A stretch of DNA of 64,000 nt. It comes from an uncultured Gammaproteobacteria bacterium (GTDB lineage Bacteria; Patescibacteriota; Microgenomatia; Levybacterales; UBA12049). The position numbers and the translations under genes were made by a program. Each line of letters opens with the position of its first letter. Position 1 is the first letter of the stretch. The stretch spans positions 199,782-263,781 of the forward strand of contig CAZWXQ010000002.1 of NCBI GenBank assembly GCA_964637955.1, written 5' to 3'. This document shows positions 3,464-55,166 of the stretch, piece by piece. The notes under the pieces are model-generated. The model made no database searches, had not been told where the DNA came from, and saw only the letters and a program-made list of their open reading frames with translations.

Positions 3464-3485
3464 AATTATCACCTCCTTCTAAAAC

Positions 3486-3510
3486 CACAAAAAAACTCCC
3501 TTACGGGAGT
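3486..3510 (-). terminator. Intrinsic terminator/attenuator hairpin ACUCCC-GUAA-GGGAGU plus U7 in the leader of the 3152..3463 gene
   Basis: Plus strand reads aaaaaaactcccttacgggagt. The minus-strand RNA has the hairpin followed by UUUUUUUGUGG, then the SD and ATG 25 nt later. Confidence 0.55.
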
Positions 3511-3615
3511 CAGGTTTTCTAAAGCAAAAAATTAATTTAAATCAAAAATACGCTAGCTCCCAAGAGAGTTAGCTCGCAGCATTTTTGATTTGATAGTCTT
3601 CTTAACATTAGCTTT

Positions 3616-3624
3616 ATAATACCA
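3616..3624 (-). promoter_or_regulatory. Extended -10 promoter (TGGTATTAT) upstream of the leader of the 3152..3463 gene
   Basis: Minus-strand TGGTATTAT lies ~150 nt upstream of the start codon. An upstream GGGAG box (CUCUCUUGGGAGCU) could pair with the terminator 5-prime arm. Confidence 0.3.
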
Positions 3625-3694
3625 AATTAAGATACGGTTTTCTAGTCTTTAATTAAATATACATTTGATTTAGTGGACAACTTCTAATTATTTC

Positions 3695-6253: not shown

Positions 6254-6284
6254 TAGCCTCGTAAGGCCAGGCCTTGCAAGGCTA
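6254..6284. repeat. REP-like palindromic element, diverged copy (AGCCTCGTAAGGCC-A-GGCCTTGCAAGGCT)
   Basis: One of 5 copies of the 29-nt palindrome family. One mismatch and one wobble in the stem. Lies just downstream of the holB stop. Confidence 0.7.
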
Positions 6285-20943: not shown

Positions 20944-20972
20944 AGCCTCGCAAGGCCAGGCCTTGCGAGGCT
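20944..20972. repeat. REP palindrome AGCCTCGCAAGGCC-A-GGCCTTGCGAGGCT (perfect 14-bp arms), 5-prime flank of the RAYT gene
   Basis: Read directly. Flank is GATTAGCCTCG...GAGGCTG. Confidence 0.9.
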
Positions 20973-20997: not shown

Positions 20998-21666
20998 ATG
21001 CCATCGAAAAATTCAAGAAAAGAGTTTTTAGAAAATGGATATTATCATATTTACAATCGTGGTGTAGAAAAAAGAAAAATTTATCTAGATCAACAAGATT
21101 ATGCTGTCTTCCTTTCTTATCTTAAAGAATATTTGACTGAGAAAAATGAAAAAGAGCTTTATGAAATTTTAAATAATCCACAAACTTCTTATCAAGAAAA
21201 AGACAAAATATTAAAGCAAATCAGATTAAATAATTTTTATCAAGAAATAAAATTAGTCGCATATTGTCTGATGCCAAATCATTTTCATTTTTTTATAAAA
21301 CAAAATAAATATAACTCTATTTCTAAATTTATGAATTCATTATGTACGAGATATACTATGTACTTTAACAAGAAATATGATAGGGTAGGTTTTCTATATC
21401 AAGGAGTTTATAGGGCTGTTTTAATTAAAAACGAATCTCAATTTTTACAGCTTTCTCGTTATATACATAAACAGGCATTGCCTTTTCAGCCATCATCATT
21501 TAAAAGATATTTGAATCAGAATAAAACAGAGTGGATATATCCGGAGGAAGTATTATCCTATTTTTCGATCGAGCATCCAAAATTAAGTTATCAAGATTTT
21601 GTTATTGGAGAAAACGAAGAAAATATAAATTTTGCCTTAAAAGATATTATTTTGGATGATGATTAG
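20998..21666 (+). CDS. IS200-like HUH tyrosine transposase (REP-associated tyrosine transposase, RAYT)
   Basis: 222 aa. GYYHIYNRGVEKRKIY N-terminus, HUH motif LMPNHFHFFI, catalytic YIHKQ (Y-x3-Q). Flanked on both sides by identical REP palindromes. Confidence 0.75.
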   Translation: MPSKNSRKEFLENGYYHIYNRGVEKRKIYLDQQDYAVFLSYLKEYLTEKNEKELYEILNNPQTSYQEKDKILKQIRLNNFYQEIKLVAYCLMPNHFHFFIKQNKYNSISKFMNSLCTRYTMYFNKKYDRVGFLYQGVYRAVLIKNESQFLQLSRYIHKQALPFQPSSFKRYLNQNKTEWIYPEEVLSYFSIEHPKLSYQDFVIGENEENINFALKDIILDDD

Positions 21667-21692
21667 CCTCGCAAGGCCAGGCCTTGCGAGGC
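21664..21692. repeat. REP palindrome (perfect copy), 3-prime flank of RAYT; supplies the RAYT stop codon (gatTAGcctcg)
   Basis: Identical 29-nt palindrome. Same flank orientation as the 20944 copy. Confidence 0.9.
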
Positions 21693-21827
21693 TGGAGAGT
21701 CCCTTTGTCTTAAAATTTGCCTATGGGTTCCTGCAAATGCTTTTATAGTAATTAAATAAGTGTTATTATAATTAAAGAGAGCCGTGGGCCCTATATATAA
21801 TAGTGTTTTAGTAATACTACTATGGGC

Positions 21828-26431: not shown

Positions 26432-26460
26432 AGCCTCGCAAGGCCTGGCCTTGAGAGGCT
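26432..26460. repeat. REP palindrome, diverged copy (AGCCTCGCAAGGCC-T-GGCCTTGAGAGGCT) between convergent gene ends
   Basis: One arm substitution. Located between the stop of the 957-aa gene and the recG stop. Confidence 0.7.
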
Positions 26461-40178: not shown

Positions 40179-40403
40179 TTAAATCTCGGGATATAAAGTC
40201 TTAATGACATGATCCGGTGCATCAGCCACTAATTTTACCAATGTTTTAATTGATTCAGCGTCAGGTTGACCACCCTGTATTTTTCCCTTCACTACTCTAT
40301 TATGCGCTACCGCTATAGTAAGTGCGTCAGGTTTTTGTTCACCAGCCTCATTTATAATAATATCAGTTTTATCTATAGTTCCAATACTACTTTCTCTTTC
40401 CAT
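40179..40403 (-). CDS. Small hypothetical protein (~74 aa) with strong SD; leader-attenuator gene set
   Basis: AAAGGAGGTGATTATT then ATG at 40403. Protein MERESSIGTIDKTD... Confidence 0.5.
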   Translation of the reverse strand: MERESSIGTIDKTDIIINEAGEQKPDALTIAVAHNRVVKGKIQGGQPDAESIKTLVKLVADAPDHVIKTLYPEI

Positions 40404-40585
40404 AATAATCACCTCCTTTCTTTTAATTTATTTGCTTTTCCGTTAGGAAAAGTTTAGTAAAATCTTATGCTATCTTTAGGTCGAATATATTTAAGTCTCT
40501 TATTGAGTACCGAATGGTACGAGATTTAGAGTTAATTATCCTAACTAATGACGGTTAGGACTTTAGTCACTTTACTTTTTTGACC

Positions 40586-40610
40586 ACAAAAAACCTCCCA
40601 TTCGGGAGGT
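40586..40610 (-). terminator. Leader terminator/attenuator ACCUCCC-GAAU-GGGAGGU plus U6, ~180 nt upstream of the 40403 start
   Basis: Plus strand reads acaaaaaacctcccattcgggaggt. An upstream P1 hairpin ACUUCC-UUUAAC-GGGAGGU could pair alternatively with the terminator 5-prime arm. Confidence 0.55.
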
Positions 40611-40695
40611 CAGTGACCTGTTATTTTACAACAGCACCTTACCTCCCGTTAAAGGAAGTAAAGTAAAAATATACTGCTGTTCTAATCATGGATTT

Positions 40696-40724
40696 ATAAT
40701 AGCAAAATTATCATAAACTTTCAA
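40696..40724 (-). promoter_or_regulatory. Promoter TTGAAA-17-TATTAT for the 40403 leader
   Basis: Minus-strand TTGAAAgtttatgataattttgcTATTAT. Confidence 0.45.
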
Positions 40725-40751
40725 TTAAAACCTGTTAGCCTCGATTAGCCT

Positions 40752-40780
40752 CGCAAGGCCAGGCCTTGCGAGGCTGGAGT
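40752..40780. repeat. REP palindrome (perfect copy) with partial duplication of its 5-prime flank (tagcctcgaTTAGCCTCG)
   Basis: Read directly. Lies 42 nt downstream of the truncated greA stop. Confidence 0.9.
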
Positions 40781-40822: not shown

Positions 40823-41107
40823 CTAGTTAATGCGCCTTAAGATTACCGTGTGGCCTATTTGCACAGTTTCATTTTGCTTTGGTTTTTCAATAATTTTGGC
40901 GTTTTCCATAAGATGAGATAAGTGTCTAATTTTTCTATCCAAATCAGAGAGTTCAAATCTGGCTCCTTTATAAAACCCGTTTTCCGAGAGATCCCCCATC
41001 GCCCTTGCTCTAGCAAGTGTCGCTACAGCTTCAGGTCGTCTTTTCTTAGCATCCTCGAGATCATTTTTAAATTTAGCAAATCCTTCCTTTGTAAATAAAT
41101 ATGCCAT
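40823..41107 (-). CDS. greA: Transcription elongation factor GreA, N-terminal coiled-coil domain only (truncated; possible pseudogene)
   Basis: GDLSENGFYKGARFE matches the GreA N-domain. The ORF ends ~20 aa into the C-terminal FKBP-like domain (VQIGHTVIL then stop). No downstream frame continues the protein. Confidence 0.6.
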   Translation of the reverse strand: MAYLFTKEGFAKFKNDLEDAKKRRPEAVATLARARAMGDLSENGFYKGARFELSDLDRKIRHLSHLMENAKIIEKPKQNETVQIGHTVILRRIN

Positions 41108-45377: not shown

Positions 45378-45428
45378 AATTAATCACCTCTATTCTCCGC
45401 CATGATTTATTGAAGGCTGATTTTTCCA

Positions 45429-45454
45429 CAAAAAAACCGCCCATAAGGCGGTTC
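45429..45454 (-). terminator. Leader terminator/attenuator AACCGCC-UUAUG-GGCGGUU plus U7
   Basis: Plus strand reads cacaaaaaaaccgcccataaggcggtt. Upstream box AACGGCGGUU is complementary to the terminator 5-prime arm. Enclosing stem GUUCUUGC..GCAAGAAC. Confidence 0.55.
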
Positions 45455-45529
45455 TTGCTCATGCAAATAAACCGCCGTTAGGAGGTCATGCAAGAACACA
45501 TAAATACGTTATTTTTCATAGGTTAAGAC

Positions 45530-45558
45530 ATGATATAAAATTGGCTTAATTAAGTCAA
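45530..45558 (-). promoter_or_regulatory. Promoter TTGACT-17-TATCAT for the 45377 leader
   Basis: Minus-strand TTGACTtaattaagccaattttaTATCAT. Confidence 0.45.
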
Positions 45559-46183: not shown

Positions 46184-46621
46184 TTAGGTCATATTTGTAA
46201 GATGATGTATATCTCTAGCTCTGTATTTAGCCCTTATTCCTTTTGGAGTTAGTCTCTGTCCATTTGAATAAAGTTCAACTATTTCTCCTTCTATAGTTCC
46301 TTGAAATATAGAGACCGATCCATCTCCCATTTTGGCAAGTGCCTGTAATTCTCTAACTATTTCACCTGCTGTAAAATGACCTGCTGTAAAATTACTGGTT
46401 TCTTCATTTGTTTGTTGTATTATTCCTAGAACACAAGCGCCTGGATTTATCACCGCTTTTACTAATGTTCCTCTTTGAATGTTCCTAATTACTTCTCCTT
46501 GTGGAATATCTAATGGTTTAGTGTCAGACTCGCTGGGTATAGCGAGAAAAGCACTTGAAAATGCCGTTTCGCTTTCCCCATCAATTAATTGTGAATCAAC
46601 TTCGCTCATATTTTTAGCCAT
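46184..46621 (-). CDS. Hypothetical protein (145 aa); first gene of an SD-bearing operon
   Basis: ATG lies immediately after the terminator U7 (GGGAGGUUUUUUUAUG). Contains internal FTAGHFTAG. Confidence 0.5.
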   Translation of the reverse strand: MAKNMSEVDSQLIDGESETAFSSAFLAIPSESDTKPLDIPQGEVIRNIQRGTLVKAVINPGACVLGIIQQTNEETSNFTAGHFTAGEIVRELQALAKMGDGSVSIFQGTIEGEIVELYSNGQRLTPKGIRAKYRARDIHHLTNMT

Positions 46622-46646
46622 AAAAAAACCTCCCTTGTGGGGAGGT
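46622..46646 (-). terminator. Leader terminator/attenuator ACCUCCC-CACAA-GGGAGGU plus U7, directly abutting the start codon
   Basis: Plus strand reads taaaaaaacctcccttgtggggaggt. The only SD for the gene (GGGAGG) is in the hairpin 3-prime arm. An upstream UUACGGGGAAC box could pair with UCCCC. Confidence 0.55.
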
Positions 46647-46741
46647 CTAAGTTTCTGCTTCTGGCCTTATTACGCCACAAACTTAGTTCCCCGTAAGGAG
46701 TTAAGAAGGACGAGAATAAGGTTTCTATTTAACATAGAGTG

Positions 46742-46771
46742 AGTATATCAAAGTGGAATTTTTTCTGTCAA
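46742..46771 (-). promoter_or_regulatory. Promoter TTGACA-18-TATACT for the 46621 operon leader
   Basis: Minus-strand cTTGACAgaaaaaattccactttgaTATACT. Confidence 0.5.
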
Positions 46772-54681: not shown

Positions 54682-55101
54682 TTAATTTCCAGAATCTACT
54701 TTGACCTGAATTTTTTTAGGTTGAGATTTGGGAGATTTTGCAAAAGAAATTTTCATTACACCATGCTTATAATTTGCAGATGGTTCCTGATTTTGATCTA
54801 TTTCTCCTGGAACTGCAACCCTATACGAGAATGATCTTGTAGCTTCTCTATAATATTTTCTTGATTTGTCTTTTTCTTCCTCTTTTGTTTCGCCTTTTAT
54901 CCATAGATTTCCATCGTGGAAAGTTATATCTATATTTTTTGGATCGATTCCTGGAACTGAAGCCTCAACATAGATATGAGTATCATCTTCTGAAACTGAA
55001 AGTCCACCTGTGGTGTTAGAGATTGTTGGAATCAGATCTTCATCCTCGTTCCAGATAGATGGGAAATTAAATAACCTACTTGGAACTAAATCATATGACA
55101 T
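54682..55101 (-). CDS. Small heat-shock protein, Hsp20/alpha-crystallin family
   Basis: Alpha-crystallin domain (GVMKISFAK, IPGIDPKNIDITFHDGNLWIKGE). ATG at 55101 preceded by GAAAGGAGGTGAATTAT. Confidence 0.75.
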   Translation of the reverse strand: MSYDLVPSRLFNFPSIWNEDEDLIPTISNTTGGLSVSEDDTHIYVEASVPGIDPKNIDITFHDGNLWIKGETKEEEKDKSRKYYREATRSFSYRVAVPGEIDQNQEPSANYKHGVMKISFAKSPKSQPKKIQVKVDSGN

Positions 55102-55129
55102 ATAATTCACCTCCTTTCTTGTTCTAGTA

Positions 55130-55166
55130 TTAGCACTAATATACTACGAGTGCTAACTCTTGTCAA
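55130..55166 (-). promoter_or_regulatory. CIRCE-like HrcA operator (TTAGCACT-N10/9-GAGTGCTAA) overlapping a TTGACA-17-TATATT promoter of the hsp20 gene
   Basis: Plus strand reads ttagcactaatatactacgagtgctaactcttgtcaa. CIRCE consensus is TTAGCACTC-N9-GAGTGCTAA. Confidence 0.65.

Follow-up and report, generated by a model that had tools for sequence, protein, structure and literature searches.

A likely Phe/Tyr-type leader-peptide attenuator, probably leaderless, ahead of an orphan small gene in a Patescibacteria-like bacterium

The DNA studied here, a stretch of 64,000 nucleotides from contig CAZWXQ010000002.1 (the window), carries at 40.7 kb a regulatory element, called copy A below, between a short greA gene and a gene for a small protein of 74 residues, its cargo. 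All features of copy A are on the minus strand, and Table 1 gives their coordinates. In the direction of transcription, greA is followed by a palindrome resembling a repetitive extragenic palindromic (REP) element, then by a promoter, a leader that contains a large hairpin (P1) and an intrinsic terminator, a spacer, and an extended Shine-Dalgarno (SD) sequence in front of the cargo gene. An earlier reading of the same DNA, the original prediction, had described the REP element, the promoter TTGAAA-17-TATTAT, the terminator hairpin with its run of six U, and the strong SD with its small gene, and all of these were found where it had placed them, the terminator in two separate scans. Missing from that description is the likely sensor, a short upstream open reading frame (uORF). 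The anatomy of the leader, the conservation of the uORF and of its helix, the stall geometry and the cognate cargo found behind similar leaders in the wider class, all taken directly from sequence and computation, make it likely that copy A is a ribosome-mediated transcription attenuator of the trp/phe type, with a Phe/Tyr-type leader peptide on a transcript that is probably leaderless.

Table 1. Positions of the features of copy A, of the other attenuator copies and of two further genes in the window
Feature	Position	Strand	Basis or remark
REP-like perfect palindrome GCCTCGCAAGGCC-N-GGCCTTGCGAGGC	40747–40775		between greA and the leader promoter
−35 hexamer TTGAAA	40719–40724	−	promoter scan, 10/12 matches, 17-nt spacer
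Extended −10 TGcTATTAT	40696–40704	−	promoter scan; TATTAT itself 40701–40696
Apparently leaderless uORF MIRTAVYFYFTSFNGR	40639–40689	−	16 codons, ATG 6 nt past the −10 box, stop UAA 40641–40639
Region 1, 5′ arm of P1	40653–40680	−	minimum free energy folds; lower helix 40680–40673, upper helix 40664–40653
Region 2, 3′ arm of P1 and 5′ strand of the antiterminator	40628–40647	−	core GGGAGGU 40647–40641
Small apical hairpin CUGUU-GUAAAAU-AACAG within the antiterminator	40618–40634	−	folds; analogues in relatives
Regions 3 and 4, intrinsic terminator GACCUCCC-GAAU-GGGAGGUU and U6 run	40588–40611	−	terminator scan and our own scan
Spacer of 170 nt opening with GUGG, three local hairpins	40417–40587	−	fold; no homologue in fetched loci
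Extended SD GGAGGTGAT	40408–40416	−	sequence
Cargo gene, 74 aa	40179–40403	−	open reading frame and one homologue; ATG at 40403, stop 40181–40179
Attenuator B (Leu/Ile/Val type)	46626–46771	−	uORF 46735–46670 = MLNRNLILVLLNSLRGTKFVA
Attenuator C (possibly Cys/Met type)	45430–45558	−	uORF 45519–45478 = MKNNVFMCSCMTS
Attenuator D (possibly Cys type)	3489–3644	−	uORF 3608–3537 = MLRRLSNQKCCELTLLGASVFLI
greA	40823–41107	−	N-terminal coiled-coil domain only (94 aa, PF03449)
hsp20 (alpha-crystallin-like)	54682–55165	−	CIRCE-like inverted repeat TTAGCACTC-N9-TAGTGCTAA over its promoter

The first 105 nt of the leader fold with z = −4.9, none of 200 shuffles being as stable; for all 301 nt together z is −5.0. 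The P1 hairpin of the original prediction is real but bigger than described, with an upper helix of 12 bp, in which 40664–40653 pairs with 40647–40636, and a lower helix of 8 bp, in which 40680–40673 pairs with 40635–40628. As had been noticed, the 3′ arm GGGAGGU is a perfect 7-nt complement of the terminator 5′ arm ACCUCCC (40610–40604), and the proposal of mutually exclusive P1, antiterminator and terminator pairings on a promoter-driven leader is supported. The terminator has a stability of −13.3 kcal/mol in our own scan. Sequences of the form CCTCCC-N3-8-GGGAGG occur twice in the window, as compared to 0.01 expected. Canonical intrinsic terminators are rare here, with six clean ones in 64 kb, and four of these six belong to attenuator leaders (terminator scan).

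The architecture is in fact present four times in the window. Besides copy A there are the dispersed copies that had been announced at 46.6 kb (B) and 45.4 kb (C), and a fourth at 3.5 kb (D) which had not been listed. Each of the others is also followed by orphan small genes led by an SD, of 103 aa in D, 83 aa in C, and 145, 85 and 89 aa in B, where the terminator arm GGGAGG serves also as the SD of the 145-aa gene. We also observed that RTGG is conserved right after the U-run of the terminator, at 40584–40587, 45427–45430, 3484–3488 and 46619–46622 as well as in many of the metagenomic loci described below. The cargo ATG lies at this RTGG in B and in about 20% of the metagenomic relatives, and the terminator 3′ arm GGGAGG is then its SD. 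In C, D and the related locus L003, a second mini-ORF with a GTG start runs from RTGG as far as the cargo start or slightly beyond it, an arrangement that may reflect translational coupling to the cargo.

The uORF of copy A ends in GGG AGG UAA, and the core of region 2 carries its last two sense codons together with the first base of the stop codon, which is thus embedded in the antiterminator strand. The candidate regulatory codons are Y7 F8 Y9 F10, plus F13, and correspond to a cluster of F, Y and W in the consensus of the family; in copy A the aromatic residues form a short, mixed run, whose codons overlap with the paired strand of P1. Since the ATG lies only 6 nt beyond the −10 box, the transcript is probably leaderless, starting about 7 nt past the extended −10 at the A of the AUG. 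A −10-like box is found 5–8 nt before the start of 22 of the 55 large ORFs in the window, as compared to 9.7% of all ATGs, the ppa gene shows the identical spacing of −10, 6 nt and ATG, and a GGAGG SD precedes only one of the 55. On these counts leaderless translation would be the norm in this genome, which, judged from its sequence, is essentially SD-less and largely leaderless, the SD-led small genes being the exception. The exact SD GGAGGTGA occurs only five times in the 64 kb, always ahead of small genes. One side observation concerns the hsp20 gene, which shares the extended SD of the attenuator cargo genes and is the one gene besides these to have an exact GGAGGTGA in the window.

To get a picture of how a ribosome on the uORF would affect the RNA, nascent transcripts up to region 3 were folded with a ribosome footprint masked from −15 to +13 around the A-site. 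The unmasked RNA of copy A folds P1 at −27.8 kcal/mol and leaves region 3 free for the terminator. The 2:3 antiterminator (−21.7 kcal/mol) appears only once region 1 is masked; it forms with the A-site at codons 2–10 and is lost from codon 11–12 through the stop. The run Y7-F8-Y9-F10 stops exactly at the last permissive codon. The other copies and all 18 members of the family of copy A behave alike under masking. In the copies an amino-acid run stands at the 3′ edge of the permissive window, L6 I7 L8 V9 L10 L11 in B (..LILVLL..), M7 C8 S9 C10 M11 in C (..FMCSCM..) and C10 C11 in D (..KCCE..), and in every family member the last permissive codon is exactly where the F/Y/W cluster ends.

These folds suggest the following course of events. 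The RNA would begin about 7 nt past the extended −10, giving a leaderless transcript, and a ribosome would read the 16 codons of the uORF. If it translates to the stop in region 2, it would cover region 2, regions 3 and 4 would pair, and transcription would terminate at the U6 run. If there is no translation at all, P1 (1:2) would sequester region 2, and termination would again be the outcome. Only a ribosome stalled at the Tyr and Phe codons 7–10 would mask region 1 alone and let the 2:3 antiterminator form, with read-through via the spacer into the SD-led 74-residue gene. What copy A senses is then probably the charging of tRNA-Phe and tRNA-Tyr.

Relatives of copy A (L003, L004, L005 and L007–L010) were located without use of the leader RNA, through greA synteny and a 79-aa homologue of the cargo protein. 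Scanning with the GreA fragment turned up eight close relatives, of which one is labelled as Patescibacteria group, and the syntenic contig has the order greA (93 aa), leader, 151-aa gene, 79-aa gene, ppa, hflX. The leaders of the seven loci adjoin greA or stand behind other genes, and all have an ATG 6–8 nt past the −10 box and a uORF of 16–17 codons. Their peptides, MTRAAAWYYFTVLNGR, MIKGLNFGFYFTHPTGR, MKQINTLWSCFTIPDGR, MINKLNFGFYFTLLSGR, MIKIINFGFYFTFPSGR, MIKHKNFGFYFTSPTGR and MNKNLTAVWYFTYPKGR, end in ...[FYW][YFC]FTxxxGR before the stop, and the frame ends in GGG AGG UAA or UAG. Length, frame and C-terminal motif of the uORF are kept in 18/18 relatives. The upper helix of P1 is 80% paired over the 18 homologues, as compared to 43–55% in slid controls, whereas the lower helix is 49% paired in the 18-sequence alignment and has no conserved fixed register there. 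Analogues of the apical hairpin, UUGCC...GGCAA, are seen in L004 and L007–L009.

The relatives also bear on the question whether the hairpin and U-run are simply the terminator of greA, a reading that the original prediction had named as one that would refute it. Downstream of greA no canonical terminator comes before this hairpin. Nevertheless we give this explanation next to no chance, because the REP element and the 10/12 promoter lie between the two, the hairpin being 212 nt past the greA stop, and because the unit of promoter, uORF and terminator stands behind unrelated genes in L004, L005 and L007–L009; it recurs, moreover, at three further sites in the window.

The original prediction also implied that a protein or ligand controls the antiterminator by recognising a 'UAACGGGAGG' box located in the loop and 3′ arm of P1, with no need of translation, and it proposed to look for this box by aligning the leaders. 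UNACGG is indeed common to A, B and C. The alignment of 18 members did not bear out a shared box, since the P1 loop is free to vary (UUAAC, CCUACG, CCUGAC, CUUUCC, CCAACC, CCUAAG and others) and GGGAGG alone stays constant. GGGAGG itself is read in all three frames over the wider class described below (44/38/33), which argues that it is an RNA pairing strand and not a peptide motif or a binding box. There is no structure of aptamer size and no conserved aptamer or box outside the switching helices, as a riboswitch or protein-binding class would have, and the conserved start and stop of the uORF would be left unexplained. We therefore find this alternative very improbable. The Rfam search, in both gathering and E-value modes, gave no family over threshold and only weak matches to Phe_leader (RF01859), which scores 29.0 bits on 40586–40690, below its gathering score of 55. 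Paralogue B scores 33.5 bits with the same model despite being of the Leu type, so the match reflects architecture, and contigs with a leader linked to pheA likewise stay under the threshold.

A wider class came from a metagenome scan with an RNA-only pattern, consisting of region 2 (GGGAGG), the terminator and the U-run, which gave at least 120 loci. Among the matches listed, a uORF of 12 or more codons runs up to region 2 and ends there in 95 of 104 low-GC elements (29.5 in dinucleotide shuffles), and in 66 of the 104 a −10 box lies 5–8 nt before its ATG (4.9 in shuffles). These uORFs bear runs of a single amino acid, which can be Met, Cys, Ile, Thr, Ser, Phe, Trp/Tyr or Leu. Recognisable cargo is cognate to the run: a Phe run precedes CM_2 and PDT (PheA, chorismate mutase/prephenate dehydratase), a Phe/Tyr run DAHP (3-deoxy-D-arabino-heptulosonate 7-phosphate) synthase, a Cys run a PALP gene (cysteine-synthase-like), a Thr run a ThrRS-like synthetase or an aspartokinase, and an Ile run an amino-acid kinase and an HMGL-like, IPMS-like synthase. 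The uORF reading frames are therefore validated, and on its sequences the scan class is a classical amino-acid attenuator.

The peptide type of copy A is part of this pattern. The leaders MKQMNVFAATFFSFTTPPGR and MKIKIVRARFFFSFTTQLGR are of its type and stand ahead of chorismate mutase/prephenate dehydratase, and Proteobacterial-like contigs have this kind of peptide and the same architecture in front of pheA. The pheA-linked peptides, ending in …AATFFSFTTPPGR and …RFFFSFTTQLGR before the stop, grade into those of leaders of small SD-led genes (…TAAFFYFTNPTGR and …TAVYFYFTIPNGR) and then into that of the window (…TAVYFYFTSFNGR). As a separate observation, Trp/Tyr-rich leaders (..NYWYYGK.., ..NWYYGK..) occur repeatedly ahead of a gene of the Asp/Glu racemase family (PF01177), in L092, L114, L127, L140 and L152, an unexpected cargo for an attenuator of the aromatic amino acids.

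The cargo of copy A has only one true homologue in an exhaustive search, a protein of 79 aa with 60% identity in the syntenic locus; a word-index search with the 74-aa protein matched itself only. Between the two genes the differences at the three codon positions are 21/14/33, with 18 synonymous codon differences. The conserved homologue and the excess of third-position changes mark the reading frame as a real gene. An AlphaFold2 model has three helices at a mean confidence (pLDDT) of 78.9, a Foldseek search of the model against PDB returned nothing with E below 0.6, and the protein matches no Pfam family and nothing in PADLOC. It contains no Phe in 73 residues, as compared to 4.3% in the large ORFs of the window.

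Cargo proteins of the relatives are a different small SD-led protein each time, of 65–163 aa. In an all-against-all BLAST the small cargo proteins form no clusters, and Pfam and PADLOC searches on 37 of them gave nothing recurrent. A proposed conserved pair of leader and cargo, formed by D and L108, was rejected when BLASTP gave no similarity between their cargos. What the small cargo proteins do have in common is composition: 32 of them together contain 64 cognate residues as compared to 108.8 expected from the pooled composition, and a ratio this low was reached in 0/20,000 label permutations, a test in which the leaders were classed by hand and some loci are mutually related.

We also noted that the 74-aa protein matches 6–7 repeats in the giant proteins P0003 (3460 aa) and P0004 (2750 aa), with E = 8.5e-11, about 34% identity and a shared ..LV..L..DAPDH... 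This match is probably a compositional or repeat-summed artefact, because the 74-aa protein is predicted to be all-helical.

Several points weigh against a Phe/Tyr-specific attenuator. The permissive window of copy A contains just two Phe and two Tyr codons, and close relatives go down to one Phe (W Y Y F in L003), so that the sensed amino acid could be aromatics in general, or there could be no specificity. The cargo has no match in Pfam, PADLOC or among PDB folds that would make it an amino-acid synthesis, charging or transport gene, and thus the cognate cargo that is typical of attenuators is absent from copy A. A spacer of 170 nt separates the terminator from the cargo SD. Of the covariation that the original prediction had asked for, a joint change is seen in C, where regions 2, 3 and 4 co-vary to GGCGGUU, AACCGCC and GGCGGUU, but the changes in P1 are mostly one-sided (G-U), with little true covariation. 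In 5/18 relatives the untranslated RNA favours 2:3 over P1. The conserved codons UUU-ACN and GGG-AGG-UAA double as paired strands of P1, which makes conservation of peptide and RNA inseparable, and since the metagenome pattern fixes regions 2–4, the conservation of the antiterminator in that set is there by construction. The start site, the translation of the uORF, the sensed amino acid and the role of the cargo are furthermore what we infer from sequence. For copy A the folds and scans do give a uORF, mutually exclusive helices with a terminator, and the stall geometry of the attenuator class in silico.

Much of this would also fit an attenuator that is coupled to translation but has no amino-acid specificity. 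General translation capacity, such as ribosome availability, the efficiency of leaderless initiation or global starvation, would then be what the leaderless uORF reports, and the U-rich 5′ arm of P1 would have given rise to the aromatic codons as a by-product. The small number of Phe codons, the mixture of W, Y, F and C at these positions in the relatives, the identity of conserved codons with paired nucleotides and a cargo unconnected to Phe metabolism all agree with it. However, it does not account for an aromatic cluster that ends at the last permissive codon in all 18 members. The runs of the sister classes (UGU-UGU-UGU, AUG-AUG-AUG, ACN x5) are not explained by pairing and precede cognate enzymes, and the depletion seen in the cargo is specific to the cognate residue. 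We regard a non-specific attenuator as unlikely.

The spacer raises a different question. Its three local hairpins agree with the 'several further hairpins' of the original prediction, but they are conserved nowhere and their stability is marginal over shuffles (z = −2.0). Neither the DNA of the spacer nor its translation resembles any fetched locus, not even the 151-aa gene found at its position in the orthologous locus L003, and the promoter scan found no site in it with at least 9/12 matches. The length of this spacer, and the fact that the leader is better conserved than the cargo, would suit a stand-alone gene for a small RNA of about 105 nt, a 16-aa peptide or both, acting in trans like Sinorhizobium rnTrpL, with the 74-aa gene expressed from a promoter of its own in the spacer; trans-acting attenuator RNAs and leader peptides are known (PMC6614838, PMC7298713). 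Such an arrangement is improbable in our view, given the lack of a promoter-like site in the spacer. It also sits badly with a cargo SD only 24–60 nt past the terminator in L003 and L007–L009 and with a terminator arm that is the cargo SD in about 20% of the class, and the 2:3 alternative would have no role in it.

The Phe leader peptide of E. coli has an internal run of Phe followed by Thr, and the uORF of copy A (...YFYFTSFNGR) is likewise a short frame with an aromatic run and then Thr. The two systems also share the 1:2, 2:3 and 3:4 structures with an intrinsic terminator, and scan contigs place a leader ending in ...FFSFTTPPGR before the stop directly upstream of CM_2 and PDT genes. The pheL-pheA and pheM-pheST leader-peptide attenuators belong to the Gammaproteobacteria and are described by the Rfam model Phe_leader, RF01859 (PMC3082878). 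Copy A differs from pheL in being apparently leaderless, whereas pheL is SD-led, in having its stop codon embedded in region 2 and only two Phe and two Tyr codons in the permissive window, in scoring 29 bits where the gathering score is 55, and in its setting, a Patescibacteria-like host and an orphan cargo of 74 aa instead of pheA or pheST.

Leaderless leader peptides have been described elsewhere. In Deinococcus deserti, 14 are predicted upstream of aminoacyl-tRNA synthetase and biosynthesis genes (PMC4007540), with the transcription start at the start codon of an amino-acid-rich uORF before an attenuator, as the 6-nt spacing suggests for copy A, and in a genome where leaderless mRNAs likewise dominate. 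That bacterium belongs to another phylum, and its starts are mapped and its cargo is cognate, as compared to a start deduced from spacing and an orphan cargo here. The mycobacterial attenuators with leaderless polycysteine small ORFs, the 'Cys ribulon' (10.1101/834739), resemble what is proposed for copy A in having a leaderless sensory frame at which a ribosome stall remodels the downstream RNA. They also occur in several dispersed copies with a regulon-like response, and copies C and D of the window hold Cys codons. Theirs act on translation, by unmasking the next gene's ribosome-binding site, whereas the output here would be an intrinsic terminator, and no link is known between the cargo of copy A and the amino acid. 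As proposed for copy A, the trpL attenuator of Sinorhizobium meliloti depends on the ribosome, and it has the trans-acting products rnTrpL and peTrpL (PMC6614838, PMC7298713); for the terminated RNA or the peptide of copy A a second role in trans is no more than conceivable.

The mechanism is thus textbook, and copy A adds little to RNA biology as such. New are the host lineage and the orphan cargo poor in cognate residues; in the literature searched, we found no paper joining leader-peptide attenuation with Patescibacteria or the candidate phyla radiation (CPR). It is conceivable, although we would not yet count on it, that Patescibacteria-like bacteria, being unable to make most amino acids, have re-used leader-peptide attenuators as amino-acid-specific starvation sensors. 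The window would hold at least four of these (Phe/Tyr, Leu/Ile/Val and two of Cys or Met), each inducing fast-evolving, SD-led orphan small proteins that lack the limiting amino acid. If this were true, the small proteins would be a previously unseen set of effectors of starvation response or host exploitation, a 'ribulon' of dark-matter small proteins. Copy A offers a testable handle on how ultra-small auxotrophic CPR/Patescibacteria could sense shortage of a single amino acid, and it flags SD-led orphan small proteins depleted in the cognate residue as the possible output of such sensing. Leaders of this kind could also be used for annotating unrecognised uORFs, for assigning an expression condition to dark-matter genes in metagenomes, and for choosing candidates for functional tests.

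The greA gene next to copy A is itself odd, as it would encode a GreA without the globular domain that binds RNA polymerase. Truncation by an insertion was considered and rejected, because the form of 93–94 aa is conserved in relatives: the short gene is kept in the close relatives L003–L011 with 67–79% identity, its stop lying within the −35 box of the next promoter, and the C-terminal domain is retained in the more distant L012–L014.

The palindrome between greA and the promoter is one of five copies in the window (6256–6283, 20945–20972, 21666–21693, 26433–26459 and 40747–40775), which form a family of GC-rich, perfect, intergenic palindromes in an AT-rich genome. It is missing at this position in the relatives, whose greA stop codon overlaps with the −35 box. 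The runs SRR14271336 and SRR14271332 contain the identical locus. Two independent Logan contigs with the identical 74-aa gene both break at the palindrome, and related GC-rich palindromes come after the attenuator terminator in L007 and L202.

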